Source: Angustibacter luteus (GTDB taxonomy: Bacteria; Actinomycetota; Actinomycetes; Actinomycetales; Angustibacteraceae). From it: a DNA stretch of 63,684 nt. Position numbers and translations under genes: made by a program. This document shows positions 1 through 59,249 of the stretch, piece by piece. Numbering within the stretch: the first letter of the stretch is position 1; each line of letters starts with the position of its first letter. Under the pieces are notes generated by a model, which saw only the letters and a list, made by a program, of their open reading frames with translations, made no database searches and had not been told where the DNA came from. The stretch spans positions 558,001 through 621,684 of the forward strand of contig NZ_BAABFP010000008.1 of the NCBI RefSeq assembly GCF_039541115.1, in the 5' to 3' direction.

Positions 1-167
1 GCCGCCACTCTCGCTGCAACGCATCGCTGGTCACGATGGCAACCTACGACGCGCGATCCAGGGCAGGCCACGTCTTGGGATGAACTCAATCGCGGCCGCA
101 CAAGCACGACCGCCCTCAACGCGGCAGATTCGGGCGAGCGTAGCCGCCCTCAACGCGGCGGATCCGG

Positions 168-599
168 TCACTCGTAGATGGTGGCCGCCTGTAAGGCGTC
201 GTTGACAACCTCCCATCCGTTGCCCGGAGGGACCCGGTCGCGGTTGTCGTAGTAGCCCCCCGAATCGGCGAGCCACGCGGCGAACGCCTCCAGGTACTCG
301 TGCAAGGCAACATTCGTCCAAGGGGCACCACCGGCGGCATCGATAGCCAGTGCTCGTGCGGTCGCGATGACCCTGTCCCGCCCGCCGGCCAGAGATGCCG
401 ACGGGCACCCGCCAGCTCCGCACTCGGTGTCGACGTCAGTATCGCCATGCTCGAACTCATAGTGAAAGCAGACATAGTGCATCCGCTCGAACACCTCATA
501 CTGGGCGGCGCTCTCGCGGACGGGTCGATGGCATCGCTGGCATTCGAGAGTCACGGCGGCAGCATGCCAGTTGCCGAGCAAGAGTTTGTGCCAAGCCAT
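168..599 (-). CDS. Hypothetical cassette protein; Cys/His-rich N-terminus and a conserved-looking C-terminal domain (WxNxxLxxYLEAFAAW...AATIYE)
   Basis: 143-aa ORF that exactly fills the gap between two repeat copies. Confidence 0.7.
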   Translation of the reverse strand: MAWHKLLLGNWHAAAVTLECQRCHRPVRESAAQYEVFERMHYVCFHYEFEHGDTDVDTECGAGGCPSASLAGGRDRVIATARALAIDAAGGAPWTNVALHEYLEAFAAWLADSGGYYDNRDRVPPGNGWEVVNDALQAATIYE

Positions 600-714
600 C
601 CGAACATCGGCACGACCGCGAAGGCTCAGCGGTAGAGCCGGGCGTCCTCCGTGCTCTGCCCTGGGGTTGTACGCCTGGCAGGCACTCGCGAATCCATCCC
701 CCTACCCTGCTGGC

Positions 715-951
715 ATGACCGATGACGGCGCCTCGGTTGGGTTCCCGGAAGACCTGGCAGGGCACTATTGGGCGCAGCTCGAGCGCACAGAGCCAAAGGG
801 CCGATGGCGGTTTGCCGTGCTCGACTACCAGAACAACGTCTTGCTGACGGGACTCGCGACCAGTGAGCAGCAAGCGGCTCGTATCGTACGTGCCTGGGAT
901 CAGATCATCGTCTCCGAGTTCGAGGGAAGCGAGGATCCGAGCATCGACTGA
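715..951 (+). CDS. Small hypothetical protein
   Basis: ATG at 715 within ORF 571..951; globular composition; lies between repeats. Confidence 0.55.
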   Translation: MTDDGASVGFPEDLAGHYWAQLERTEPKGRWRFAVLDYQNNVLLTGLATSEQQAARIVRAWDQIIVSEFEGSEDPSID

Positions 952-1098
952 TCGACGTCGCCGATCGGGCTGAGGCGTACCAAACCCGCACGGCGCAGGC
1001 CGACGGACAACGGCAGATTCGGTGGACGAACCGGCGGTTTGACTTACGTCTGGGTCGTACACGCCTCGCATGAGGGTCAGCACGCCGATACTGACGGT

Positions 1099-1347
1099 AT
1101 GACTCATCACCCGAGACTGACGACGACGTTTGGATACCTCGCCGTCGGCCTTGGCGTCCTTGCTTTCGGCCTGATCAGTGCCGCTGGCATGTCGAACATG
1201 GGGGACCCTGGACCCGGTGACTCGCTTGAACCGCCGCGCATCTTCTACGTCCTGACGGCCTGCGCTGGCGTTGCTGCAGTTCTCGCCGTCGCTGGGGGAC
1301 TCGCCTCTCTCGGCTCGTGGCTGCGATTCAGGCGCGACCAAGCGTGA
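1099..1347 (+). CDS. Small two-TM membrane protein
   Basis: Two hydrophobic segments; stop codon immediately followed by the repeat start CGTCCG. Confidence 0.6.
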   Translation: MTHHPRLTTTFGYLAVGLGVLAFGLISAAGMSNMGDPGPGDSLEPPRIFYVLTACAGVAAVLAVAGGLASLGSWLRFRRDQA

Positions 1348-1513
1348 CGTCCGAAGATCGGCACAACCGCGCGGATCGCGGCACATCCGGGCGAGCGAAG
1401 CCGCCTTCACCGCGGCAGACCCGGACGTAGACGGATTCGGTGCGTGCACTTCCGGCACGGCGCGTCGAACGTGGTGAACCTTGCCGGGTCGGCCGTTGGA
1501 CTTGTTCAGGCGT

Positions 1514-1813
1514 TCAGGGCGTGGCGTCAGGCTCGATTCGTCCTCGTCTGCGCGCCAGGCGCCAAAGAAGAGTTATGAGAATCGCGAGTCCCCAGGTAAC
1601 ACCAACGGCGCCATGAAGCAGCCGGTCCATTTTGGACCGACTCGGATCGCCCACGAAGCCGTCGCCGAGCCAGATCAACACCAAGAGAAAGAGCGGAGCA
1701 TCGTGCCAGCTCCACCGTTCAGGGAAGAGCTCACGACCGGCCGCAGCGGCCACGCACGCAGCTATCCCAAAGCCGATTGCCACGGCGTAGATAGCGACCG
1801 TCAGTACTTGCAC
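1514..1813 (-). CDS. Small three-TM membrane protein
   Basis: Hydrophobic segments in ORF 1514..1876; GTG at 1813 chosen because upstream codons run through the repeat. Confidence 0.55.
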   Translation of the reverse strand: MQVLTVAIYAVAIGFGIAACVAAAAGRELFPERWSWHDAPLFLLVLIWLGDGFVGDPSRSKMDRLLHGAVGVTWGLAILITLLWRLARRRGRIEPDATP

Positions 1814-1952
1814 ACGAAGAGGATCGCACGTCGCGATACGGCCGGAGCGGGCATCCGAACATCGGCACAACCGCACTCGATCAGCGGCAGATCCGGGCGA
1901 GCGTAGCCGCCCTCAACGCGGCAGATCCGGATGACTTGGTGAGAATGGACAG

Positions 1953-2348
1953 ATGTGGGAATGGGAGACGAGCGTGGTCCTGGTCCGGAGCGCCGCCGAT
2001 GAGCTGCTGTTCGTCCGGCAGGATTACGGACATCGCTTCTTCGGCCTGCCGGGCGGAAGAGTCGAGGCGGGCGAGGAGCCCCAGGCGGCCGCCGTTCGTG
2101 AGCTCTTCGAGGAGACCGGGTTGACGGCCGATACCGTGGCGTTCCTGCGGACCTACGACCTGGTGTACCCCGGAACCGACAGCAGCTACGGCGCGCACGT
2201 CTTCGTCTGTGACCGGTATTGGGGCGAGCTCGCGACGAACGTGCCCGACGAGATCTCGTCGGTAGGGTGGTGGTCCCTCGGTGAGCTGCCGTCGCCGCTG
2301 ACGCCCTCGGCCCACGTCGTCGTGCGCGACTTGACGAGGCCCTCGTAA
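1953..2348 (+). CDS. NUDIX hydrolase
   Basis: Nudix box GGRVEAGEEPQAAAVRELFEETG. Confidence 0.92.
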   Translation: MWEWETSVVLVRSAADELLFVRQDYGHRFFGLPGGRVEAGEEPQAAAVRELFEETGLTADTVAFLRTYDLVYPGTDSSYGAHVFVCDRYWGELATNVPDEISSVGWWSLGELPSPLTPSAHVVVRDLTRPS

Positions 2349-2445
2349 CGTCCGCTCATCGGCATGACCGCCCTCAACGCGGCAGATCCGGACGAGCGGG
2401 CCCCGCCCTAAAGGCGGCAGACCCGGATGTCTGCGGCCGAGCTGA

Positions 2446-2658
2446 CTAGCGACGGCGGGGCTGGCGATGGAAGTAGACAGTCATCGTGAGGTCGTCTTCG
2501 CCACCAGTCACTGCTGACTGAAACGTGATGTCTTGAACGTCGACGTCACCTTCGACCTCGATCGCATCAGCCAGACGCCGAAGGAGGGCAGGAACGAAGC
2601 CCTGGCCGTCGCCCGATGGGTTGCTGATCGAGAAGTTGAAGATGGTGTTGTCAGGCAC
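2446..2658 (-). CDS. Small hypothetical protein
   Basis: ORF 2446..2694, probable GTG start at 2658; lies between repeats. Confidence 0.55.
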   Translation of the reverse strand: MPDNTIFNFSISNPSGDGQGFVPALLRRLADAIEVEGDVDVQDITFQSAVTGGEDDLTMTVYFHRQPRRR

Positions 2659-2713
2659 CAGGCAATCATCGCGCGACCCATGCTGTCGCGCCATCAGCGG
2701 CAGATCCGGATGT

Positions 2714-2896
2714 TCAGTCGAGCCCTGATAGGTCGACGCCGGGCTTCATGGTGATGTCGAAGAAGTCCAGCAAGGAGTCAGCGATTAGGGGCGGCATCTC
2801 ATCGACGGCGCGCCGTACTCCAACCTGTGCCTCAATCTCCCAGGCAATGACACGGCGGAGCTGATCGAAGACTTCCGCACGGGTTATCTCGGTCAC
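2714..2896 (-). CDS. Small hypothetical protein (60 aa)
   Basis: Stop codon 1 nt from the repeat end CGGATG; helical composition. Confidence 0.55.
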   Translation of the reverse strand: MTEITRAEVFDQLRRVIAWEIEAQVGVRRAVDEMPPLIADSLLDFFDITMKPGVDLSGLD

Positions 2897-3027
2897 GGCA
2901 CCGATTGTGCCGGATCGTCAGGGCATCCACGGCACTGCCGCGATCAGCGGCAGATCCGGGCGAGCGGGTCGCCCTCAACGCGGCATGAGCGGAAGCGCTC
3001 CGGCGGTCAGTCCCTAGGAGCTGGGCC

Positions 3028-3249
3028 ATGGCGGCTCGGGTACGTGCGGACAACTTGCAGGTTGGTGACGTTGTAGTCCTGACGACGGCGTCGGGAGACC
3101 AGGCGCTGCGGATCCATGCGGTGATTCCGCGCACCGCAACGATCAAGTTCGTGGGACGAAGACCCGAGCACCCATCCGAGAGCGCCGGCCAGTTCAATTG
3201 GGGCTGGCCTCCGGACCACATGGTCGAACTCGTCGCTGGGGCGCACTAG
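3028..3249 (+). CDS. Small hypothetical beta-rich protein (73 aa)
   Basis: AGGAG upstream of the ATG; stop codon 3 nt before the repeat. Confidence 0.6.
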   Translation: MAARVRADNLQVGDVVVLTTASGDQALRIHAVIPRTATIKFVGRRPEHPSESAGQFNWGWPPDHMVELVAGAH

Positions 3250-3386
3250 GACCACCCGCTCATCAGCACGAGCGCGCGACACGCAGATCCGGGCGAGCGG
3301 TCACCCTCAACGCGGCAGATGCGGACGCTGCGGCGACTGAAACGACGGAGTGACCGGTAGTGGTGATGTAGGGCGCCGCCAGTGGG

Positions 3387-4214
3387 GTGCAGCAGACTGG
3401 TGTGGTGCAGGAGTTGGTGGAGTATCTGATCGACCTCGATGGTCTGGACAACGACCAGCAGGACGCGATCGGGCGAGCGGTGCTTGGGGCGATGGCACCG
3501 GTCGCTGCTCGATTTCAGATCGACATCCCTGGGGCGCGGCCCGGCGATCCTGAGGACATGTTGAACGCCGGCGAGGTACTCCGTGTCGCGGCGGGCAAGA
3601 CCTCCGAGAAGGACCGTGCCTACGCGACCTCAGGTTGGTTGGACGCCACGGATCCGGCCCTGTGGGAGGCCATGGTCACGTTCATGCCCTGGTCGTACGA
3701 CGGCGACGTCTGGAATGGCGATGGACGTCAGATCGTGGGGTTGCACGATGGCGAGGTCACCTACGTTGCACTCAATGACGAACAGCTATCCGTGCTCTCT
3801 GAGATCGTCGGGCCGGGCCGCCTCCTGCCCTGGGCGCAAGTGCGGTCCGAGCGCCGGGCGGCGCGGCGGGCATGGCTCCGCAGGAACCCTGTACTCGTGG
3901 GCGGCTGGCTGGCGATCATCGTGGGGATACTGCTCGTGCCGCTTCCAGGGCCCGGATTGCCGGTCATGTTGGCCGGCCTGGCAGTGGTTGCCGGAGCGTC
4001 GATCACCAGCAAAGCGCGCCGTCGCCGGGCCTCAACGGCCGACCGGCATCTCCCGCCGGGAGATTGCTCAGGCTGTGGGCACCCTTGGTCGGAGCACCGT
4101 GGCTCCGGCAACGACAGGCGAGGCATGTGCGGGGAGTGCGCGTACGAGTTCGAGCACGACCAGCGGGCGACAGAAGCTCCAGGTTGCCGCCTGTCCATCC
4201 CAGCAGCGCGATGA
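3387..4214 (+). CDS. Hypothetical protein with a PGPG-type TM hairpin and a C-terminal CxxCxH...CxxC motif
   Basis: LLVPLPGPG between two TM helices; stop codon abuts the repeat. Confidence 0.6.
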   Translation: MQQTGVVQELVEYLIDLDGLDNDQQDAIGRAVLGAMAPVAARFQIDIPGARPGDPEDMLNAGEVLRVAAGKTSEKDRAYATSGWLDATDPALWEAMVTFMPWSYDGDVWNGDGRQIVGLHDGEVTYVALNDEQLSVLSEIVGPGRLLPWAQVRSERRAARRAWLRRNPVLVGGWLAIIVGILLVPLPGPGLPVMLAGLAVVAGASITSKARRRRASTADRHLPPGDCSGCGHPWSEHRGSGNDRRGMCGECAYEFEHDQRATEAPGCRLSIPAAR

Positions 4215-4310
4215 TGTCCGGCCCTGAACGCGGCAGATCCGGGCGAGCGTAGCCGCCCTCAACGCGGCATGTTCGTGAACTGTTTTAGGTGGCGTGACAC
4301 GATCCTGGGC

Positions 4311-4892
4311 GTGAACCTGGCGAGCGAACTGCAGGAACTGGAGTCGCACCTTCGCTCCAGCGGCGCAGCGATCGGCGGGTTGCTACGCCCAGCACTGTCG
4401 CGCGGCGAAGTGCACGCGTACCTCGGTGACCAGTTCGACCATGTCCCCGAGGAGGTGGTCACCTGGTTCGGCTGGCACGACGGCGCGACCGAAGAGTGGT
4501 TCGCGCTCCCAGGAGGCCCCCGGCCCGAGACGTGGTTGCCCAACGGCACTCACCTTTACCCGCTGCACGCTGCGCTCGAAGTCCGGGACGAGCTGCTCGA
4601 CCTCGCTGGACCTGGCAAGACGTATGAGTCGATCACCTACCAGCCCTACTGGCTGCCGCTGGTCGGGAACGAGAGCCTGAGCCTGGTCGTGGACATGCGC
4701 GTGGGCGAGCCCACGCGGGTGCATCGGGCGTTCCCTCACGGCACCGGCTGGGATCAAGTCGTCGAGCCTTCACTGACGACGATGGTCCATGCCTGGAACC
4801 TCAGCTTCAGGGCCCGCAGGTACATCTGGGACGGCGGCGACCAGTGCTGGCAGGAGTACCAGCCTGACCCGGCCCATCCCCTCGTCACGTGA
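4311..4892 (+). CDS. SMI1/KNR4 (SUKH)-like immunity-type protein
   Basis: LRPALS..EV...VPEEVVTWFGWHDG and WLPL...LVVD pattern; start uncertain (4269 or 4311). Confidence 0.65.
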   Translation: MNLASELQELESHLRSSGAAIGGLLRPALSRGEVHAYLGDQFDHVPEEVVTWFGWHDGATEEWFALPGGPRPETWLPNGTHLYPLHAALEVRDELLDLAGPGKTYESITYQPYWLPLVGNESLSLVVDMRVGEPTRVHRAFPHGTGWDQVVEPSLTTMVHAWNLSFRARRYIWDGGDQCWQEYQPDPAHPLVT

Positions 4893-5003
4893 CGCCCTCA
4901 CCGCGGCAGATCCGGGCGAGCGTAGCCGCCCTCACCGCGGCAGATCCGGGCGCGTGCTATGACTTCCGAGGCGCACACTCTCCGCCCGCTCGTGCGGCGC
5001 GTC

Positions 5004-6215
5004 TCAGTGGCTTCGGAGTCGTTGGATCTCAGCGCGAGAGTGCTGCACAGCTGCGGTGTCTACCCCGTTGCTCTCGCTCAAGTCGTGAGCGAGGTCGAGG
5101 CATGCGGCGAGGACGTGCTTTTCCTGCCGTTTGCTCACAGCGTCGGGACGCCCTCTCAGAGCCGCCTTGCGGTCCTTGCGCCGCCGAGAGCGCTCGCCGG
5201 CCATTGCTGTGAGCTCGAGCTCGGTGATGGTGCCGTTGGCGACCTCCGGGGCCAGGACGTCGTGCAGCCAGTCGCGCTCGCGGTGCGCACCCCACCGCAG
5301 CGCTGCAATGAGCACGGCAACGCTGGCCGCGGTGATGCCGATCATCAGGGCGCTCACGCCGAAGCTGTTGGCGTTGGCGAGGGCGAGCATCGAGTCCCAG
5401 AGACCGTGGATGAGCATGGCCGAGAGCATCAGCAGGAGACCACGGCCTACTCGACGTGGCTGGGCCGGGGTGCCGACGAGGTAGATGATGCCGGCGGCGA
5501 AGATCGCGGTGTACATGGCGTGTGACGCGATCCCGGAGATCGAACGAATGACGAAGGTCTCCAGCACGGCGCCGACCTGGTTGACCCCGAAGTTCTCGTA
5601 GGCGGCGTTCTGGCCGTAGAGCATGTCTTCGAGGACTTGGAACCCCAGCCCGATGTAGGCGCCCACGATGAGGCCGTCGTAGACGGTGCGGATCACGAAC
5701 GGCGCGAGGCCGAGCATCAGCAGGAACACCGCGCCCTTGGCGCTCTCCTCCACGAACGGCGCGGTCAGACCTGCCTTCCAGTCTGTCGCCCACGCTTGCC
5801 CGAAGAACTTCGCGTACAGGTCCATCAGCGCAGCGTTGCCGGGTAGCGCCATCGCCCACGGGGCTCCAACGCCGCCGCCGACGAACGCAGTCACGGCCAA
5901 CAGGGCCGGCGTGCGCTCGTACCGATCGAAGTGGTTGAGACACAGCAAGAACACCAGGCAGAAGGAGCCGGTCGAGGCGACCGCGGCGAGGTTCGCGTCG
6001 GCGAACACCGCCGCCGTGGGTGCCGCGACCTCGTAGAGCTGGCGAGCTCCCATCGCGAGCAACAGGAGGTAGACCCACAGGCACAGGTTGCGAGGCTGGA
6101 ACAGGTGGAATCGGGCGCCCCACCCCGACTCCTGGATCGCGGCCTCGCGACGCGCGAGGAGCTCCTGGCCGTCGGAAGCGGCGGCATTGCCCGACACAGC
6201 CGTCGTGGTGCTCAT
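5004..6215 (-). CDS. PrsW-family intramembrane metalloprotease
   Basis: EESAKG, GLGFQVLED, HAMYT and HGLWD motifs; multiple TM segments. Confidence 0.9.
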   Translation of the reverse strand: MSTTTAVSGNAAASDGQELLARREAAIQESGWGARFHLFQPRNLCLWVYLLLLAMGARQLYEVAAPTAAVFADANLAAVASTGSFCLVFLLCLNHFDRYERTPALLAVTAFVGGGVGAPWAMALPGNAALMDLYAKFFGQAWATDWKAGLTAPFVEESAKGAVFLLMLGLAPFVIRTVYDGLIVGAYIGLGFQVLEDMLYGQNAAYENFGVNQVGAVLETFVIRSISGIASHAMYTAIFAAGIIYLVGTPAQPRRVGRGLLLMLSAMLIHGLWDSMLALANANSFGVSALMIGITAASVAVLIAALRWGAHRERDWLHDVLAPEVANGTITELELTAMAGERSRRRKDRKAALRGRPDAVSKRQEKHVLAACLDLAHDLSESNGVDTAAVQHSRAEIQRLRSH

Positions 6216-6841
6216 CAGGACCCGCCTTCGTCCTGAGCGAGGGAATCGATCATGTCATCGATCTCCGGTTGCAACTGGGTCAGCTGGCCCTCTTGGCCGG
6301 CGACCTGGATCTCGATGCCTCGACCGTTGACGACGAAGACCGTCGTGGCGCCGGCACCGACCGGGGTGGTGAAGGGCTGGGTCAGTCCGCGCAGGCCAGC
6401 CGCCGAGGTGATGTCCCGGGCCTCGCCTGAGACGTGGTACCCATCGTTCTGTGCACCGGTGATCCGCTCGGCCTGGTCGAGGAGACGAGTCGCGCTCTCA
6501 TCGAACGGGCCTTGCAGGATCGAGAACGCGACGCCGTCCTTCACCAGCACGGTCTGCTCGGCAGCCTGGTCGCCCATCCGGGGGTCGTCCGTGGTCCGCA
6601 GGCCAGCGACCACCCCCCAACCCGGCGGGACCGTCATGGTTACGTCCTCGGTGACCTGAAACGCCTCACCGGCGCGGGTCGTGTCGTCCCACGCAACCCT
6701 TGCGTCGCCCCACGGCATCACCCACGCCCACAAAGCGATCACGGCGAACGCAACCACGGCGTATGGAATCGACCGCCGATCCAATCCAAGCCAGCGGTGC
6801 TCCACCGGCACCCGTCGCGCATCCACCTGCACTGAGCTCAT
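6215..6841 (-). CDS. Membrane-anchored hypothetical protein, coupled to the PrsW gene
   Basis: Single N-terminal TM; stop overlaps the PrsW start. Confidence 0.7.
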   Translation of the reverse strand: MSSVQVDARRVPVEHRWLGLDRRSIPYAVVAFAVIALWAWVMPWGDARVAWDDTTRAGEAFQVTEDVTMTVPPGWGVVAGLRTTDDPRMGDQAAEQTVLVKDGVAFSILQGPFDESATRLLDQAERITGAQNDGYHVSGEARDITSAAGLRGLTQPFTTPVGAGATTVFVVNGRGIEIQVAGQEGQLTQLQPEIDDMIDSLAQDEGGS

Positions 6842-7246
6842 CGCGAACCCCCTCACGAGGCGACGGCACCCGTCGCAGACTGCTTCCACCCTAAATGACG
6901 CCTCACCCGTGCGGGTGACCGACGATACGCAGCCGAGGCCGAAGCACACCGGTCGGAATGAGTTCGGCCATCGCGTCCGGTCCCACGTGCCACGACCTCA
7001 AGGGATGACGCGGTGCATCCGATCATCGGCAGATCCGGTAACTCACCGGCCGTCCGGAACGCGGCGTAGTGACGCAGGTCGCTGGCAAGGCGATTCCAGT
7101 CCGCCGAGTAGCGGTGCCAGTGTCAAGCGAATGGCAGGTGATGTCGAAGGCTCCCTTGGGTCTGTTTCGTGGCCGCCACGGTCAGGGCTCCTTTAAGGTG
7201 AGGCCCGGTCAGGGGTGGGGTGTGCGTTTTGACTGAAGGAGACTGG

Positions 7247-8380
7247 ATGCGCCGGGCAGTGGTGGGCGCCGCACTCGCGGCCGCGTTGGTGACGAGCGCC
7301 TTGCCGGCGAGCTTGGCCTCTGCGGACGCCGCGACCCCGCTGCCTGTCGTGACGGCCCCCTTCGGGTTTTCACCCGACGGTGACGGCCGATATGAGGCGT
7401 GGGCCCTGTCAACGGGCCAGGTGCCGGCCGGATCGACCCTGACGCTGTCCATCGACCGCTCCGGGAGCCTGGTCCGCAAGCTCATCGTCATGTCAGCCGG
7501 CGGCGCTGTCATCACGTGGGATGGCAGGGACGGTGCCGGCCACGCCGTCCCGGACGCGACCTACTCGTGGAGGCTGACCGGCGAGGACGACCTGGGGCAG
7601 CCGATGACGGGTCCTACCGGCGGGTCGTCCCTGACCGGCACCGTTGTGGTCCGCCGCAGCGCGCCTGCGGTCATGCTCGTCGGCCCAGCCGTCAACGCCA
7701 CAGCCACGGCGGTGGGCGGGCACGTACCCCTGCGCTGGTCGCCGAAATCGTCTCTTCCCGCGGGCTACCGTGTCGAGTACGACGTGCGCTATCGGCAGCT
7801 GACGACCGACCCCCACGGCCGAATTCAGGTCAGCAACGTGTCACCGGTCGCCGACCACCACGAGACCATGCAATGGACGACACGCACCTCTGTGCTGTCG
7901 TGGCAGATCTGGTCACTGGCCAACCCGGCCATGACGGAGCAGTACACGGCCCGGTCGCGTGACAACCTCGGGCACGTGGGCACCTGGAGCCCGTGGCTGT
8001 CCTCCGCGGTCGCGTTGGACGACCGCTCAGCCGAGGTCTCCTACAGAGGCGGCTGGTCTCACCCTCGGGCCACCTCGGCGTACAACGGCACCTACTCGGT
8101 CACGACACGGGTGGGGGCCAACCTCTACACCAGCGGCAACGGCCGCGTGGTCTATGTGCTCGGCGCGCGTTGCCGTAGCTGCGGCAAGGTCCGCATCCAA
8201 CTCAATGGTGGTGGTCGCACGCGCTACATCACCGTTGACACGTACGGGTCCACGTCGACGTTTCGCCGCGTGCTCGCCAAGATCACCGTTCCCCGCGCCG
8301 ACTACACGGTCTTCGTCACCAACCTCGGCGCCGGCTCACGCAAGCGGATGGCCGTGGACGGCTTCGCGTTCCGGCTCTGA
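7247..8380 (+). CDS. Secreted protein with a FlgD-type Ig-like domain and further beta-sandwich domains
   Basis: Signal peptide; FSPDGDG and WDGRDGAG..VPDATY motifs. Confidence 0.75.
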   Translation: MRRAVVGAALAAALVTSALPASLASADAATPLPVVTAPFGFSPDGDGRYEAWALSTGQVPAGSTLTLSIDRSGSLVRKLIVMSAGGAVITWDGRDGAGHAVPDATYSWRLTGEDDLGQPMTGPTGGSSLTGTVVVRRSAPAVMLVGPAVNATATAVGGHVPLRWSPKSSLPAGYRVEYDVRYRQLTTDPHGRIQVSNVSPVADHHETMQWTTRTSVLSWQIWSLANPAMTEQYTARSRDNLGHVGTWSPWLSSAVALDDRSAEVSYRGGWSHPRATSAYNGTYSVTTRVGANLYTSGNGRVVYVLGARCRSCGKVRIQLNGGGRTRYITVDTYGSTSTFRRVLAKITVPRADYTVFVTNLGAGSRKRMAVDGFAFRL

Positions 8381-8483
8381 ACCTGGCTGCCTGGTGGCAA
8401 ACCGATGGTTCGCCTATGACCCGACGGCTCGGGCAGTGCGTGCGCCTGTCTTGTCCGACAACGACAGCGACGGCTGAGGTCGC

Positions 8484-8975
8484 ATGAGGTCGTCATCATG
8501 GCTATTGCTCGGATGCCTCGCCGTTGCAGCGAACAGTGCGGGGCTCGTGGCCGGTTGTTCGGACCCGGACCCGGGACCGAGGCAGGCTCAGCATGTCGCG
8601 AGTGGTGCGGACTGGCTGCTCGACGTGAGCCACGGCTACCAGGACCAGCTGTGCCTTGAACTCAGGAGCCGGGACGGTCGGCGAGAGTTCAGCGGCGGGT
8701 GTGGCTTCACAGACTCCTCCCCGAGGTCCGAGACGTACGGCGTCTTCGGAGGGCCGGGGGATGACGAGTTCGCCTACGGTCCGGTCTCCGCATCGGTGGC
8801 TGCGGTGGTGGCCACCAGGCCCGGCCACCCACCGGTGCGCATCACCCCGATCCCTATCAGTGGGTTCAAGCAGGCGGCCGCCGCCTTCGTGTACCGACTT
8901 CCCGATCACAGCGCGCAGTGGATCTTCACCGGTGAGGACGCCTCAGGCGCACAGGCGAAGCTTGGCGTTCGCTGA
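8484..8975 (+). CDS. Putative lipoprotein
   Basis: Hydrophobic N-terminus with VAGC lipobox-like motif; stop codon 3 nt before the last repeat copy. Confidence 0.6.
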   Translation: MRSSSWLLLGCLAVAANSAGLVAGCSDPDPGPRQAQHVASGADWLLDVSHGYQDQLCLELRSRDGRREFSGGCGFTDSSPRSETYGVFGGPGDDEFAYGPVSASVAAVVATRPGHPPVRITPIPISGFKQAAAAFVYRLPDHSAQWIFTGEDASGAQAKLGVR

Positions 8976-9181
8976 GTCACTCCGATCATCGGCACGAGGG
9001 TAGCGAGATCAGGGAAGTGGGGCGTGGCGCCGACCTCAAGTGCCCCAGTTCTCTGCATTCGACGGACGCACTCATCTCGGTGTGAGAGTGCGCTCCGGGA
9101 TCGTCTGGCGAGACGACACGTCGCCGGGACTGGAGCGGCGCCTAGGCTTGGTCACGAACCCCGAGGCCACGAAGGACGACG

Positions 9182-10387
9182 ATGCTGCACGCCAGGCGCA
9201 ACCCCAGCGCCCACCCGTCGATGGCCGCACTCGTCCTGGTCACCGGAATCGGCCCCCTCGCGGTGGACACCTACGTGGCCGGACTCCCCGAGCTGCAGCG
9301 CTCGCTGAGCACCTCGGCCACGATCGCCCAGCTCAGCCTGACGGCGTTCATCATCGGCATCGGCATCGGCCAGATCGTGCTCGGACCCTTCAGCGACGGG
9401 CACGGTCGCCGTCCGCTGCTGATCCTCGGCACCGTGGTCTTCACCGTCGCCTCCATCGCCTGTGCGCTGGCACCGACCGGCCCGACGCTGGTGGCGTTCC
9501 GGCTGGTGCAGGGCATCGTGGCGGGTTGCGGGGTGGCGGTCGGGCGAGCAGTGATCAGCGACCACTACGAGGGGGACGCCGCCGCCGCCCGATACGGCAC
9601 CCTGTCCGCGATCGTGTTCCTGGGGCCGGTGGTCGCACCAGCCATCGGCGGTGTGATCCTCGCCGTCGGCAGCTGGCGCACCATCTTCGCGTTCCTCACG
9701 CTGCTCGGGCTGGCCATGGTGGCCGCAGTGGTGCTGGCGATCCCTGAGTCACTGCCTCCTGAGCGCCGGCAGGGCCACGGCATCCAGCACAGCCTGGCGC
9801 GTATGGCCGACCTCGCTCGGGACTGGCACTTCATGCGGCACGTCGTGGTGCAGGCCCTGGCGACCGGTGGCTTCTTCGTCTACATCGGTGGCTCGTCGTT
9901 CGTGCTCGAGACGACGTACGGGATCACCCAGAGCCAGTACGCGTTGCTGTTCGCGACGAACGCGGCAGCCATGGCACTGTCCAGCCTGGCGTTCCGGCTG
10001 CTGGTCGTCCGGCTGGGGGCGGCGCGCCTGCGCACCGTCGGCGTGCTGACCGCGTGCGTCGCCAGCGCCGCCCTGGTGGTCGTCGCTCTCGGCGACCCGG
10101 GGCCGGACTCACCCCTCGCCGTCCCCTGGGTGCTGCTCAGCGTGGTGGTGGCGAGCATGGGCTGGTCGATCCCCGGCACGACGGCGTTGGCGCAGCAGGC
10201 CGGTCGGCGGTCGGGCGGCACGGCGGCCGCACTGCAGGGCGGGCTGACGTTCCTGGTCGGGGCACTGGTGACGCCCCTGACCGGCATCCTCGGCTACGAC
10301 TCGCTGCTGCCGATGGCACTGCTGATGCTCACGTTCTTCGTGCTCTCGACGTGCTGGCTGTTCGGTAGCCGCAGCACGCACGTCTAG
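9182..10387 (+). CDS. Bcr/CflA-family MFS drug efflux transporter
   Basis: DTYVAGLP and GPFSDGHGRRP motifs; ~12 TM segments. Confidence 0.92.
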   Translation: MLHARRNPSAHPSMAALVLVTGIGPLAVDTYVAGLPELQRSLSTSATIAQLSLTAFIIGIGIGQIVLGPFSDGHGRRPLLILGTVVFTVASIACALAPTGPTLVAFRLVQGIVAGCGVAVGRAVISDHYEGDAAAARYGTLSAIVFLGPVVAPAIGGVILAVGSWRTIFAFLTLLGLAMVAAVVLAIPESLPPERRQGHGIQHSLARMADLARDWHFMRHVVVQALATGGFFVYIGGSSFVLETTYGITQSQYALLFATNAAAMALSSLAFRLLVVRLGAARLRTVGVLTACVASAALVVVALGDPGPDSPLAVPWVLLSVVVASMGWSIPGTTALAQQAGRRSGGTAAALQGGLTFLVGALVTPLTGILGYDSLLPMALLMLTFFVLSTCWLFGSRSTHV

Positions 10388-55390: not shown

Positions 55391-56002
55391 ATGGCTAACC
55401 CCGTGGACGACGTGATCCGTCAATTCATGATGCCGAAGGCCGTTGCGATAACGGGTCGCTCGTCGAGTATCACGAACTCGTTCATCAACTCCATCATCCC
55501 AGTCGTCATCCCGACGCCTGAGGAGATTCGCAGAGCTCTCGAGATTCTCGACATGACGGAACAGGTTCGCTGCGCCTACTGCGCCGATCCTCACACCGAG
55601 TGGGACCACCTCCGACCGTTAGTGATCAACAAGCAGCCGACCGGCTATATCTCCGAGATCCACAACCTGGTCCCTTCATGCGGAAAGTGCAATCAATCAA
55701 AGGGAAACAAGCACTGGCGGGTCTGGATGCTCGGGTCCTCGCCCCTGTCCCCTGCCTCACGGGGGGTCTTCGACCTCGACGTGCTGGCGCTGCGACTCGA
55801 GCAGTACGAAGCTTGGAGTGCCCCCACTCGCCTCGACTTCGCCTCATTGGCCGGCCCGGCCCTCTGGGCCGAGCACTGGGATCACCACCGGCGGATCCTT
55901 GGCCTCATGCAGGAGGCGCAAGTCGTAGCCACCTCGATTCGCGAGAGTGTAAGGGCCGGCTACCTGGCACAAGCGCCGACGCGATATTCAGCCACCGACT
56001 GA
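55391..56002 (+). CDS. HNH endonuclease
   Basis: CAYC..EWDH..P...HNLVPSCGKCNQSKG. Confidence 0.88.
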   Translation: MANPVDDVIRQFMMPKAVAITGRSSSITNSFINSIIPVVIPTPEEIRRALEILDMTEQVRCAYCADPHTEWDHLRPLVINKQPTGYISEIHNLVPSCGKCNQSKGNKHWRVWMLGSSPLSPASRGVFDLDVLALRLEQYEAWSAPTRLDFASLAGPALWAEHWDHHRRILGLMQEAQVVATSIRESVRAGYLAQAPTRYSATD

Positions 56003-56493
56003 TAGTCGGGCGGCACGACACCGAGCCCGCCTGGGTCACGCATGCCGCTCGGAGGATGCCCGTGTTATCGAGGGTGCCGTGCATCAGAACTCGGCTCAAC
56101 GGCAGCGATTTCGAGCACTCAGCCGGACGCGCAGCTACGTCCCGAGCATGCGAGGCAACGCTTCAATGCTCAGCGTGGCGCCTGGCCACGCCGAGCCCAG
56201 AATCAATTTATCCGTGTTCATTACACCCAACGGTGGCGCCAAAGGCGCCAGCCTTGTGTCTAATAGAGTGGCGGCGCCGGATAGGCGCCTTGTCGATACT
56301 GAAGCAGATGCTTGATGCATTGGCAGGCCGCCCCCATAGGGGCGGCCGTGCCTTGTTTCCCACCCCCACCCCTTTGTTCGCCGAAAGAGACTGACTCAAG
56401 AGAACGCGTGAGTACCTGCAGGTCAGCGGCCTGCCGACACGTGCGGAACGCTCCCCGTGGGAGCCGTGGGCGTAGCAGTTTGAGGCGAAACCG

Positions 56494-56974
56494 CTACGGC
56501 GATCGATCCCCGCAACTTGGACACCGGCCCCTGCCGAGCCACCCTTGTTGGGCGACGTGTCGAGGCAAAGCGAGACAGCGCCGACCCGAGCCTGGCGCAA
56601 GAAGGCCAACGCGCACGGCCTGTCTGATCGACCGATCCAGACTCGAGGCGACGCTCTCGAGGGTCCCCGGTCCGACTTCTCCTTGTTGATCGACGGCAAA
56701 ATAGCCCGACCAACTCTCCCTGCCGAAACGGCGCGTGCCCGCTCTTCTCCATGCGCGAGACCGCTAAGAACCAGACCCTAAGCCAACCCGGGACAACCCC
56801 CCTCGCTCCCCCGATCTCTGCCGCCCAGGACTGAGCGACCGCCGCCCAGGTTCCTGAGCGGTCCTGAGGGCCAGCGAAATGAATCTTGTGCGCGACCCTG
56901 GCTTTGGCTGCCGATGCGCTTGCCTCGGCGGTGCCTGGCAGTGCCTTCAGTTGCTTGCTCATGGGACTCGACAA
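56494..56974 (-). pseudogene. Frameshifted small (winged-helix-like) protein of the mobile element
   Basis: Removing one T from the T4 run at 56698-56701 joins ...GHAPFRQGELVGLF to AVDQQ...RSIRQAVRVGLL...RCLALP...CPSC*. Confidence 0.45.
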
Positions 56975-57089
56975 GACCAGCCACCACCGGAACCTGACCT
57001 TGCCCTCGCGGGACTCCCCAACACGAGTCTTCCGGGGAGGTCGGCCTCGAGCCGGTCGCCGTCCGATCGCGGAGGCCAGCCAGCCCGAT

Positions 57090-57299
57090 TCACGGCCTCA
57101 CCATTCGATGGGCCGCTGAAGCGGCATCCTCATTCAGCCAGCGCTCCAGTTCCGACAACCGGTAGCGGTACTGCTTGCCGATCTTGTAGCGGGGCACACC
57201 AGATCTGGCGGCACAGTTGTGCAGCCAGCTTGGCGGCTTGTCCAGGAACCTGGCCGCCTCCCTGGTGCTTACAAACGGCTCAGGCAACTTGCTGGTCAA
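57090..57299 (-). CDS. Excisionase-like HTH protein
   Basis: STREAARFL...W...GVP.YKIGKQYRYRLSELERW. Confidence 0.82.
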   Translation of the reverse strand: MTSKLPEPFVSTREAARFLDKPPSWLHNCAARSGVPRYKIGKQYRYRLSELERWLNEDAASAAHRMVRP

Positions 57300-57421
57300 G
57301 ATCAGTCCTCCTCATCTTGGGCGCATTGAGTAACGCTAGACCCCATGTAATCGTCTTTCCATTAAGTCTGTCAAGACTCCATGCATGGACATGGGCCAGG
57401 GGGTCGGCTAGACTCACTGTC

Positions 57422-58123
57422 ATGACCAACGGCGCATCGGAGACCCGCCAGTCACTCGGCGCGAGGCTGCGCAGCCAGTTGGGCTCCCAGCCCCTCGCCG
57501 CCCTCCCGGCGGCCCCGCAGGCACAGACGCACGTTGAGGATGACCGCATCACCACGATGTGCCGCTTGGGGGAGGACTGGATCATCGGCATCGAGTTCGT
57601 GCGGGACGAGCTCGACCTCGACCGCCCGGTTGAGCTGACAATCCTCGCGGCCCGCAGTGACTCGGACGTGGCGCTCACCACCAGCGTGCTGCGCGCCATC
57701 CCACTCGGACAGCTCATCGATGCTGCCCGAGCGGTATCCCGCGACGCATCGGTGCTTTACGACGCGTACGAGGCCGCGATCGCGGAAGAGCTGATCGTGT
57801 GGACGCAGGATGCCCGACGCACCGGCGCAAAGCGCAGCGGTTTGGCATACGCGGCCCTAGCCGCGCGCTACGCCGACCTGGTCGCACGCGGAGATCGCAA
57901 GCCCGCAGAGACGCTAGGCGCAGAGTTGGACATGTCGCCTGTGACGGTCTCGCAACGAATCCGGGAAGCGAGGCAGTCGGGCCTTCTCACTCCCGCTGTC
58001 CCGGGCAGGGCTAGCGGTCGTCTAACCAGGGAAGCCGTGCGCTTGCTCGGCGACCTGTGGATGAAGGCTCATGGGAAGGTGCGGGCCAGCAAGGTTGAGG
58101 AGGCAGGAGATGGCCTGGATTGA
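57422..58123 (+). CDS. Island regulator-like protein with a C-terminal HTH
   Basis: PAETLGAELDMSPVTVSQRIREARQSGLL; divergent from the excisionase and overlapping the integrase start. Confidence 0.65.
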   Translation: MTNGASETRQSLGARLRSQLGSQPLAALPAAPQAQTHVEDDRITTMCRLGEDWIIGIEFVRDELDLDRPVELTILAARSDSDVALTTSVLRAIPLGQLIDAARAVSRDASVLYDAYEAAIAEELIVWTQDARRTGAKRSGLAYAALAARYADLVARGDRKPAETLGAELDMSPVTVSQRIREARQSGLLTPAVPGRASGRLTREAVRLLGDLWMKAHGKVRASKVEEAGDGLD

Positions 58124-59249
58124 GAAGCGAGCCGCGGGTTACATCGGGCGTTATCGCGATGCCAACGGACGGACGCGATCGACGCGGCTGATGCGCCGCA
58201 AGCGGGATGCCGTTGAGGCAGCCGAGCTGCAGGAGCGGCGCGTGAAACGCGGGGACTGGACGGACCCTGCCCTGGGCAAGATCACCGTAGGTGAGTGGTC
58301 CAAGCTCTGGCTCGCCGGGCTAGAGGTGACGCCTAAGACCAGGCACGGCTACGACGAGCGTCTCCGGTCGTTGATCCTCCCGCGCTGGCAGGACACGCGC
58401 CTGAACGCCGTCATGCTGTCCGAGGTCAAGGCCTGGGTCGCCACGATGGCGGGTGCCCGTGGCCGGTCCGCAAGTGACACCAGGCGACGCGACGCGGGGG
58501 CACAGCTGGTGCGGATGCTCGACGCAGCCGTCGACGAGGGGCTGATCAGGTCCAACCCTGCCAAGACCAAGGCCGGCAAGACCACGTACCTTCCCCGGGC
58601 CAAGAAGGCCAAATCGCACCGCTACCTGTCGGACAACGAGCTGCTGGCCGTGGCGGACGAGTGCGGTTCCTACGGCTCATTCGTCCTGCTCGCTGGGTAC
58701 ACGGGCCTACGTTGGGGCGAGATCACTGCCCTGCGCGTCCGGGACGTCAACCTGCTGCACGGCAGGATCACCGTCGAGCGCGCCCACTCGATGGTCGGCG
58801 GAAGGCTCCTCGTGGGGGACACGAAGACGCACGAGCGCCGCCAGGTGGTCGTGCCGGGCTTCTTGCGTGAGGACCTGTCCCGGCTGATGGTGGACAGGGA
58901 TCGCGACGACCTGATCTTCGTCAGCCCGGACGGGAGCCCGCTGGACAACCGGAACTTTTCTCAGCGCGTGCTCGCCAAGGCCTGGGTGCGTGCGGGCGTC
59001 GAGCGGCTCACGTTCCACGACCTGCGCCACACCGCGGCGAGCCTGGCGGTGGCGTCCGGGGCGAACGTGATGGCCGTCCAGCGCATGCTGGGGCACGCTT
59101 CTGCGGCGATGACGCTGGACACCTACGCGGGGCTGTTCGACGACCACCTGGTCGACGTGGCCGACCGCATGAGCGAGCGCGCGATGTCTAGCCGTGCCCA
59201 CTCCGTGCCCACTAGGGGCACGGAGCAGGTCACGGCATTGCGAGCCTAG
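58110..59249 (+). CDS. int: Tyrosine recombinase/integrase
   Basis: TGLRWGE, HDLRH, LGH and TYA catalytic residues; AGGAG RBS. Confidence 0.95.
   Translation: MAWIEKRAAGYIGRYRDANGRTRSTRLMRRKRDAVEAAELQERRVKRGDWTDPALGKITVGEWSKLWLAGLEVTPKTRHGYDERLRSLILPRWQDTRLNAVMLSEVKAWVATMAGARGRSASDTRRRDAGAQLVRMLDAAVDEGLIRSNPAKTKAGKTTYLPRAKKAKSHRYLSDNELLAVADECGSYGSFVLLAGYTGLRWGEITALRVRDVNLLHGRITVERAHSMVGGRLLVGDTKTHERRQVVVPGFLREDLSRLMVDRDRDDLIFVSPDGSPLDNRNFSQRVLAKAWVRAGVERLTFHDLRHTAASLAVASGANVMAVQRMLGHASAAMTLDTYAGLFDDHLVDVADRMSERAMSSRAHSVPTRGTEQVTALRA

Follow-up and report, generated by a model that had tools for sequence, protein, structure and literature searches.

A gene-cassette array in Angustibacter luteus points to a probable site-specific cassette system of Actinomycetota built from non-integron parts

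The window, a stretch of 63,684 nucleotides from Angustibacter luteus, begins with an array of small genes separated by short direct repeats, and its comparison with related loci indicates that Actinomycetota probably have a site-specific gene-cassette system built from non-integron parts. As judged from sequence comparisons, each mobile unit extends from one core to the next and comprises a right arm, most often a single gene that may point either way, and a left arm; the sites of an array are directly repeated, and a clade of recombinases lies between two sites at fixed spacing. The recombinase would be the enzyme that moves the cassettes. An earlier, sequence-only reading of the window had proposed cassette capture and shuffling through a recombination site of its own, other than attC, and this proposal is supported both by similarity that breaks at the site core and by a tyrosine-recombinase clade tied to the site. 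Below, G000 is this genome, C8 and C5 are its contigs and G003 is a congener.

The array and its genomic context

All 13 elements listed by the sequence-only reading were recovered, every one on the + strand, together with the 12 intervals between them, of which ten contain a single ORF and two a gene pair, with genes in both directions (Table 1). One further site lies at 9077. The elements are present, but each is a compound of one to three short sites and not the single unit of about 80 bp that had been described; likewise, the array is real but larger than first reported, as it runs 12.5 kb further left. Stop codons had been said to abut the elements: the ones at 1347, 2348 and 4892 meet the 10-bp left arm precisely at its outer edge, the reversed stop at 2714 is 1 nt beyond the right arm, and the stop at 4214 lies 5 nt outside. 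The reported lack of attC boxes was confirmed, as there are eight RYYYAAC matches in positions 1-9100 and none is within an element; no credible Rfam match to a structured RNA was found at the elements. Among the cargo labels NUDIX was borne out by Pfam, but 'SMI1/KNR4-like' is unconfirmed for 4269-4892, since this gene has no Pfam match at E ≤ 0.01; a genuine SUKH/SMI1 match (Pfam) sits just left of the window.

Table 1. Elements, cassette genes and right flank of the array (window coordinates)
Feature	Position	Strand	Remarks
Element 1	111..170	+	two sites, cores 121 and 155, 34-bp unit between
DUF7660-domain cassette gene	168..599	-	Pfam
Element 2	597..644	+	T-core site 607, 22-bp mini-unit, G-core site 629
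Cassette gene	667..951	+	no Pfam match; ATG at 715 a possible start
Element 3	1000..1025	+	one degenerate site, core 1010; decayed stretch back to ~950
Small hydrophobic protein cassette gene	1039..1347	+	no Pfam match; stop abuts left arm
Element 4	1348..1427	+	three sites: 1358 (T-core), 1378, 1412
Small hydrophobic protein cassette gene	1514..1813	-	no Pfam match
Element 5	1852..1933	+	three sites: 1862 (T-core), 1884, 1918; served as search query
NUDIX hydrolase cassette gene	1953..2348	+	Pfam E 2.9e-22; stop abuts left arm
Element 6	2349..2429	+	three sites: 2359 (T-core), 2379, 2414
Cassette gene	2446..2694	-	no Pfam match; start uncertain, 2658 or 2694
Element 7	2687..2712	+	single site, core 2697
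Cassette gene, 60 aa	2714..2896	-	no Pfam match; stop 1 nt outside right arm
Element 8	2937..2995	+	two sites: 2947, 2980
Cassette gene, 73 aa	3028..3249	+	no Pfam match
Element 9	3253..3327	+	two scored sites, 3263 and 3312; middle core decayed
PGPGW-motif cassette gene	3387..4214	+	homologues of two congeners at a chromosomal locus without sites
Element 10	4220..4279	+	two sites: 4230, 4264
Cassette gene, 207 aa as called	4269..4892	+	no Pfam match; stop abuts left arm
Element 11	4893..4952	+	two sites: 4903, 4937
Two-gene cassette	5004..6841	-	PrsW-family protease 5004-6215; 208-aa protein 6215-6841, no Pfam match
Element 12	7016..7041	+	single T-core site 7026
Two-gene cassette	7247..8975	+	FlgD-Ig-domain protein 7247-8380; 163-aa protein 8484-8975, no Pfam match
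Element 13	8979..9092	+	weak T-core site 8989 (score 4.9), host palindromic repeat ~9003-9060, last site 9077
Bcr/CflA-family MFS gene	9182..10387	+	conserved right flank, outside array

Window positions 1..9157 form the right part of a 25.2-kb island (G000:C8 ~541,935-567,158) with a G+C content of 66.8%, versus 72% for the contig. The island holds 34 scored elements, 21 of them outside the window on its left side, with C8:545,522 as the first, and no site at score 12 in its left 3.6 kb. The site matrix, which was trained partly on the array's own copies and is partly circular for loci fetched before its construction, gave 57 matches on the + strand of the island and 0 on the - strand, versus 0.72 expected. 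As had been noted, the element is not evident in the rest of the window (0 sites scoring ≥14 beyond 9200). Of the 25 exact copies of the 13-mer core that the 4.16-Mb genome contains, 14 belong to the array, and these are all on +. Genome-wide scatter, the ordinary behaviour of REP elements, was not observed, as 73 of 112 genome matches fall into five same-strand clusters and the other 39 are single.

The corresponding place in a congener holds 1.5 kb versus the 25-kb island, and the island is absent from G003, where a match to the array's glyoxalase cassette starts at the core and continues onward. Cassette content was checked for conservation across relatives and differs between congeners; this difference and the clustering of the element, on which the cassette reading could have failed, both came out in favour of it. 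A search for decayed sites beside ten congener homologues of the array cargo left 20 of 20 flanks within background; together with the site-free left 3.6 kb, this indicates that cargo genes also live outside cassettes.

Anatomy of the site

The site is 26 bp long, with a 10-bp arm, the core (T/G)CGGCA and another 10-bp arm. The arms are loosely symmetric, with matching information peaks at -10/-9/-8/-6 and +11/+13/+14/+15, and cross-core complementarity at the sixth arm position is 0.85 versus 0.25 for background cores (602 versus 946 sites). Arms of one site or one cassette match each other no better than arms taken from random sites do, except for a weak effect in the four innermost bases (p 0.005). 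At the first core position T and G both occur, which gives a mismatch if the overlap is six bases. The putative empty site-to-site units measure 20-22 bp and 34 bp, the latter forming tandem runs with 19-20 exact matches in one locus. Compared with shuffles, hairpin folding of the elements gave z values of -1.4 to +0.4 in nine of ten, and -2.3 in one. Stop codons concentrate at 0-1 nt from the edge of the arm and seldom extend into it; single genes run with the site direction in 145 cases and against it in 202. Some right arms are followed by GTT.

The partner recombinase

The recombinase that, in the sequence-only reading, might lie left of the window was found neither there nor anywhere in this assembly: no recombinase lies at either end of the array, and its left side carries APH, a NUDIX-DinB frame and then sugar-metabolism genes. 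The six tyrosine recombinases of G000 were rejected as partners, four having no site within 5 kb and two having one weak match each; the nearest relative (C8:369,010-369,891) has about 30% identity, is broken and falls outside the clade described below. Two other candidates were rejected as well: a MobA/VirD2-like relaxase abuts one mini-array but is not recurrent among the common neighbours at other loci, and a 93-aa protein occurs in eight loci of the genome set but is missing from the 25 neighbours seen most often in metagenome loci.

The partner that recurs at other loci is one clade of Xer-like tyrosine recombinases, ~305 aa long and lacking the integron signature, which is present in 14 loci that were found by the DNA. 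Its co-occurrence with the site is 5/11 versus 19/389 genomes (Fisher p 1.8e-4), and in 78 metagenome loci, chosen by the protein alone, 219 sites lie on the opposite strand versus 27 on the same strand (shuffle, 20). Sites are found ~55 bp before the start (32/70) and ~20 or 53 bp after the stop (36/67), with a scored site on a given side in only about half of the recombinase genes; these fixed distances on both sides imply that the recombinase is itself a cassette. The clade received an SH-aLRT value of 98 in a quick tree, with sites in 35 of 35 members versus 5 of 25 single matches outside, and the sites track this one clade, not its 38-60% identical relatives. Toxin-antitoxin-like pairs, named by eye, were seen among the neighbours of the recombinase. 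The best relatives on plasmids are 33-43% identical, with no clade member among the matches listed. Six array-bearing genomes, G000 among them, gave no clade member, and in G003 there is just a fragment; as the clade is missing from this genome, its array is an orphan.

The catalytic residues of tyrosine recombinases (R160, K186, H250, R253, H276 and Y285) are invariant in 16 sequences, and a Xer-type fold agrees with the best matches by sequence and by fold, which are XerD, XerA and Brujita Int; the AlphaFold model is weak (pTM 0.47, pLDDT 63) and adds only 'tyrosine recombinase'. Three clade members scored 43-64 bits against the integron-integrase profile TIGR02249, whose cut-off is 265. In the alignment of residues 41-290 with XerD 27-282 there is no long insertion of the integron I2 kind; the match to IntI4 covers only 228-294.

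These results bear on the idea of a divergent true integron, whose attC sites would fold into single-strand hairpins for an IntI acting from elsewhere. Such an origin would suit the layout, the cargo classes, the stops abutting the site, the toxin-antitoxin-like pairs and the GTT after some right arms, but it is hardly credible in view of elements with neither an RYYYAAC box, nor significant folding, nor arm pairing within them, of genes in both directions, and of a partner far below the IntI cut-off that aligns with XerD without the long insertion.

Alternatively, the cassettes may be real and moved by host XerC/XerD, as in Acinetobacter dif modules, the ~305-aa recombinase being a frequent passenger. 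The 10-6-10 layout of the site resembles dif, which has an 11-6-11 layout, and the six array-bearing genomes without the clade still have XerC/XerD-like matches. We regard this as unlikely, because the host's dif-like site (G000:C5:482352, located by its motif) is quite different in sequence from the cassette site, whose arms have no ATAA/TTAT boxes, show loose symmetry and do not switch orientation in any array; moreover, the sites follow one recombinase clade and occur across genera of several orders.

Distribution and breakpoints

An exact 31-mer retrieved 91 stretches from many actinobacterial genera, belonging to several orders, in same-strand arrays; 70 other loci contain 328 same-strand versus 16 opposite-strand sites. 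Singleton sites also exist. Viral contigs gave no exact match to a 25-mer, and targeting of tRNA was rejected, with a tRNA gene in 3 of 16 loci.

Cassettes common to different genomes are alike up to the site, where identity drops to random. Flank identity is 0.39 before and 0.85 after the start-of-cassette sites (n=10), and 0.84 before and 0.39 after the end-of-cassette sites (n=8), versus 0.36 at random, in a small set that is not independent (one triple of loci and one pair from one genome). All 16 cargo pairs that are shared agree in orientation. Such breakpoints fit cassettes that would be excised and re-integrated at the sites.

The breakpoints also bear on a selfish REP- or MITE-like repeat lying between accessory genes that move by homologous recombination or unrelated means. 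The 34-bp tandem runs, the singletons, the cargo homologues without sites and a site-repeat-site unit present in four places of G000 (element 13 and three others) would fit such a repeat; the last of these had been considered as a conserved 3' 'end element', which was rejected, as the unit is a copy of the host's scattered palindromic repeat with a site on either side. Against this explanation, which we find quite improbable, stand the strictly single orientation, similarity that breaks at the core with assorting arms, elements that in nine of ten cases fold no better than shuffles, the fixed spacing to the recombinase gene, and the different sequence of the host's ordinary palindromic repeat, which is scattered in both orientations.

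Genes of the IS110 family are the commonest mobile neighbour (16 loci, 8 of them within 400 bp of an element), and at least one IS end lies in the site core in 21 of 22 listed rows, which could mean that an RNA-guided IS110 recombinase builds the arrays. We consider this very unlikely: the cargo cassettes bear site arms and not IS ends, G000 has no such IS110, and symmetric arms fit a tyrosine recombinase. The IS110 separates CGGC from A within the core and carries ends of its own, as fits a parasite of the site.

Proposed mechanism

The recombinase would bind both arms as double-stranded DNA and exchange strands in the core, so that a pair of direct sites would excise a circle able to re-enter at any other site. 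Since the asymmetric core would preserve orientation, arrays could grow, be reshuffled and give rise to new loci with no need of a fixed attI or a common promoter. The cassette that encodes the recombinase would be gained and lost like the others, leaving orphan arrays such as this one. Tandem expansions of the 20-22-bp and 34-bp units probably arise by unequal sister-chromosome exchange or slippage, because these units are too short to circle. On balance, we lean towards an independently evolved, widespread cassette system in Actinomycetota, with one phage-derived arm-less tyrosine recombinase that is a mobile cassette, short double-stranded sites, platform-free arrays in which up to 30 or more genes face either way, and its own site-specific IS110 parasite.

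Significance

According to the IntegronFinder survey, Actinobacteria had no complete integrons, and the cause was left open (PMC4889954). Our results suggest that part of Actinobacteria has other cassette machinery, invisible to attC-based tools, and the 26-bp site provides a simple rule for finding exchangeable accessory genes in soil actinobacteria. The system also makes it possible to test directly if double-stranded sites are sufficient for cassette arrays, a question that bears on integron origin (PMC4792948); if true, this would be a living double-strand-only cassette system, corresponding to the stage before attC hairpins in models of that origin. The ~1-kb recombinase cassette and its short tolerant site could become a genetic tool for high-G+C bacteria.

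Comparison with known systems

The nearest named relatives of the recombinase are simple arm-less phage integrases, with ~49% identity to those of Arthrobacter phages (e.g., Isolde gp36); the mycobacteriophage Brujita Int has the same size and likewise no arm-binding domain. However, phage integrases integrate the phage genome, and the Isolde gene has no scored site in the 1.5 kb around it. REP elements are also short, intergenic and sometimes tandem, but the cassette sites have a single orientation, are confined to accessory islands, have no significant hairpin and mark breakpoints; neither scatter in both orientations beside core genes nor a stable hairpin was found. IS1111-attC elements target attC at a fixed position, and the IS110 subfamily likewise inserts at one position of the cassette-site core, a likeness that describes the passenger and not the arrays.

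pdif modules consist of accessory genes bounded by short double-stranded sites, each with a 6-bp spacer flanked by two arms, and crossover takes place at the centre of the site (PMC13141974). The cassette site has this layout too, and its breakpoints place the presumed crossover in the centre. In pdif modules, however, the XerC and XerD arms are distinct, orientation around the module is inverse and alternation is obligatory, whereas the cassette sites are all direct (57 versus 0 here, 328 versus 16 in the 70 other loci), have loosely symmetric arms unlike the host dif and are accompanied by a dedicated single recombinase that travels along.

With integrons the arrays share mostly single-gene cassettes between direct repeats, stops abutting the site, similar cargo and a tyrosine recombinase, and the orphan array is like the CALINs, integron arrays without the enzyme (PMC4889954). 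They differ in the 26-bp site without attC boxes or hairpin, in a recombinase scoring below the IntI profile cut-off and in having no fixed platform (attI/Pc) at one end, the recombinase being bounded by two sites, in or beside arrays. The system would work like an integron, yet it is neither an integron nor a dif-module system; lacking the defining properties of both, it appears categorically new as a system, and its chemistry would be ordinary tyrosine recombination.

The array and its genomic island

The array is real, larger than the sequence-only reading had described and widespread. The 13 elements, 12 intervals and abutting stop codons of the window (G000:C8:558001-621684) were all recovered when its sequence was re-examined, and the array reaches to the left beyond the window, while the recombinase guessed to lie there is absent from either end of the array. 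Genome-wide, A. luteus (G000) has 25 exact copies of the 13-mer core; this array accounts for 14, all of them on the plus strand. In a congener with a complete genome (G003), a distance of 1.5 kb separates the two flanking gene blocks, compared with 25.2 kb in G000, and the gap holds one unrelated 468-aa gene and zero sites. The G + C content of the island is 66.8%, against 72%. Pfam matches of the cargo include NUDIX, DinB, two glyoxalases, histidine phosphatase, short-chain dehydrogenase, SUKH/SMI1, DUF6869, DUF7660 and PrsW; most array genes have no Pfam match.

Coordinates of the array and of related or neighbouring features (C, contigs of G000; L, fetched loci)
Feature	Position	Remarks
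Array, 34 scored elements	G000:C8:545,522 to 567,077	13 of 34 in the window
NUDIX + DinB-like, one 391-aa frame in G000	L001:4838-6013	in G003, two genes at loci far apart
Separate small element close to the window end	window 55391-59249
HNH-like ORF (by eye)	window 55391-56002
Phage-type tyrosine integrase, 392 aa	window 58071-59249	no cassette site within 5 kb
Three-site mini-array	L004:5700-8300	same chromosomal position in G003: L267
Palindrome-between-sites unit	window 8979-9092
Palindrome-between-sites unit	G000:C8:379,416-379,633
Palindrome-between-sites unit	G000:C2:1,100,049-1,100,256
Palindrome-between-sites unit	G000:C4:49,488-49,541
Nine-site mini-array	L002:8403-15503 (G000:C4:463,403-470,503)	fourfold tandem of a 32-bp unit
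Two near-identical recombinase genes	L115:5957-8539	successive units
IS110 at site core	L062, L079, L088, L105, L109, L116, L130, L143 and others
Tandem runs of a 34-bp unit	L065, L081, L148	about 18-20 copies
Toxin-antitoxin-like pairs by recombinase	L192, L204, L205, L211, L245, L250

Anatomy of the site

Each element consists of one to three 26-bp sites joined by units of 20-22 bp or 32-35 bp. The alignment of 602 distinct copies, a selected set taken from HMM matches and anchored on the core (T/G)CGGCA, revealed two 10-bp arms with mirrored information, although symmetry was not imposed. Complementarity across the core at the sixth arm position was 0.85, compared with 0.25 in 946 background cores. 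The arm edges are backed independently by the stop codons of site-adjacent genes (198 forward and 264 reverse), which peak 0-1 nt outside the arm; within the range tabulated, only two forward and five reverse stops overlap it. The motif RYYYAAC is absent from every element, folding of the elements was no better than that of shuffles in nine of ten tests, and the arms are unmatched within the element or across the cassette, save for a weak four-base effect (381 segments). The site is thus unlike attC, and these three properties would fit arms that bind protein on double-stranded DNA.

The dif-like site of the host differs from the cassette site. The scattered palindromic repeat of G000 is a separate family. 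The tandem runs found at three loci are confusable with CRISPR arrays or VNTRs.

Distribution of the sites

The site matrix gave 112 matches in G000, 73 of them in five same-strand clusters and 39 single. The five clusters, on contigs C2, C4, C5 and C8, are all on the plus strand of their contigs; in G003 both orientations occur. With two candidates scored per genome, BLAST detected the element in at least 24 of 400 class-level genomes; the unpublished G280 is one of the 24. An exact 31-mer was found in 91 stretches (80 fetched) from Nocardioides, Cellulomonas, Actinotalea, Kribbella, Ornithinimicrobium, Lapillicoccus, Jiangellaceae and Kineosporiaceae, as well as in one Gaiellaceae MAG and one MAG (locus L118) labelled Candidatus Limnocylindria, which is outside Actinomycetota and may be mis-binned.

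After the removal of 10 overlapping loci, 70 remained, on which the site matrix was partly trained; further sites within 5 kb were on the same strand in 328 cases, compared with 16 on the other strand, and at least two sites were present in 55 of the 70. A single gene is present in 347 of 500 segments free of recombinase and IS110; 145 of these genes run along the site direction and 202 against it. In a rough test, a -10-like box was present right before the start of 102 of 626 cassette genes and 33 of 221 host genes, with a random expectation of 0.4%; as the box is equally frequent in both, many cassettes may have promoters of their own.

Cassette boundaries

The boundaries were compared between segments at least 80% identical at different loci, with the alignment reaching to within 25 nt of the site, a criterion that fixes the inner flank and leaves the outer flank free. 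In these few, partly dependent pairs, the identity at cassette starts (n = 10) rose from 0.39 in the 40 nt preceding the site through 0.52 in its left arm and 0.77 in its right arm to 0.85 beyond it. At cassette ends (n = 8) the values for these four stretches were 0.84, 0.88, 0.62 and 0.39; random pairs gave 0.36, 0.44 and 0.51. The orientation of shared cargo pairs was the same in 16 of 16. The glyoxalase cassette of the G000 array has a counterpart of 91% identity in the 19-element array of G003, with similarity beginning at the core.

For genes of this array, ten homologues in congeners lack sites above background, and a NUDIX gene that is flanked by sites in G003 has none in G000; genes thus occur both inside and outside cassettes, and both observations count against the cassette reading. 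We consider a cassette system, with the crossover falling within the core, very probable.

At the position of the three-site mini-array of G000, G003 has other genes without sites, including a homologue of this island's APH gene. A non-coding unit, in which the host palindromic repeat lies between two sites, is present in four places of G000; its two longest copies are 94% identical to each other, and the four copies hint at past movement within this genome. The nine-site mini-array lies directly 3' of the stop codon of a MobA/VirD2-like relaxase gene, with a mobC/NikA-like gene alongside, and cassettes may travel from cell to cell on an integrated mobilisable element.

Mobile neighbours and the recombinase

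When the 2,258 proteins of the loci were clustered, two mobile neighbours recurred: IS110, in 16 loci, and a tyrosine recombinase of ~305 aa, in 14. One IS110 subfamily is inserted in the site core, between CGGC and A, as seen at one or more junctions for 21 of the 22 rows listed, duplicates included. We read this subfamily, which is absent from G000, as a parasite of the site.

A close member of the recombinase clade was present in 11 of the 400 genomes; 5 of these 11 were element-positive, compared with 19 of the 389 others (Fisher p = 1.8e-4, the kin being non-independent), and for 4 of the 5 the distance between recombinase and element is at most 5 kb. At loci chosen by protein alone, with the HMMs built beforehand, element copies lie just upstream of the gene on the opposite strand. 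The independent test comprised 78 non-redundant loci of 80 metagenome loci fetched once the site matrix was fixed, and yielded 219 sites opposite to the gene strand, 27 on the same strand and 2 inside the gene; crude shuffles gave 20.

Of 70 loci, 32 have a site no more than 250 bp upstream of the recombinase start, mostly at about 55 bp; within the same distance downstream of the stop, a site is present in 36 of 67, at about 20 or 53 bp. Upstream of the start the core is G-type in 33 of 33 cases, and downstream of the stop it is T-type in 41 of 42. Two loci have the gene by itself, with a site on each side, in a segment of 971-972 bp. Intact recombinase genes of the clade are present in, for example, loci L080 and L114.

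In a quick tree, 35 sequences (9 obtained via DNA, 13 via protein search and 13 from metagenome loci picked knowing the 78-locus result) formed one clade with an SH-aLRT of 98, all 35 with sites within 1.5 kb; outside the clade, only 5 of 25 had a site match, each single. The catalytic residues are invariant in the 16 sequences compared. Aligned with XerD, the recombinase shows no long insertion; it fails the IntI profile and is ~49% identical to Arthrobacter phage integrases; its best 120 database matches bear generic names only. No clade member is present in G000 and five other array-bearing genomes, and G003 has a recombinase fragment inside its array. We consider it quite probable that this clade is the enzyme.

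The paired recombinase genes of one locus suggest duplication. The commonest neighbours of the recombinase in the metagenome loci are small gene pairs resembling, by eye, type II toxin-antitoxin modules.

Proposed mechanism

The site structure, the direct orientation, the core-to-core units and the recombinase gene bounded by sites are shown by sequence comparison. The recombinase would perform double-strand exchange within the core; direct sites would release circles able to re-enter elsewhere at other sites, with the orientation set by the core asymmetry. Gain and loss of the enzyme's own cassette would give rise to orphan arrays, i.e., sites without the enzyme in the genome. The T-then-G signature of the recombinase cassette recurs in the short mini-unit (79 of 98), from which it may be speculated that T-core sites are favoured as targets and that the mini-unit represents a collapsed form. 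The capture of new cassettes through chance near-sites is plausible, and is unsupported by the flanks of the ten congener cargo homologues. The explanation as a whole appears fairly likely.

Comparison with known systems

No description of this system was found in the literature surveyed by title and abstract opening, with most subscription journals outside the coverage. The available parts of two tyrosine recombinase classifications (PMC8138268, PMC3414803) describe no such system; the clade may fall in one of their named subgroups. Another study reports no complete integrons in Actinobacteria (PMC4889954). The array works like an integron, but the system fails the tests for IntI, attC and platform. 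The arm-spacer-arm site is shared with the dif modules of Acinetobacter, which differ in being bounded by inverse XerC/XerD sites in alternation (PMC13141974).
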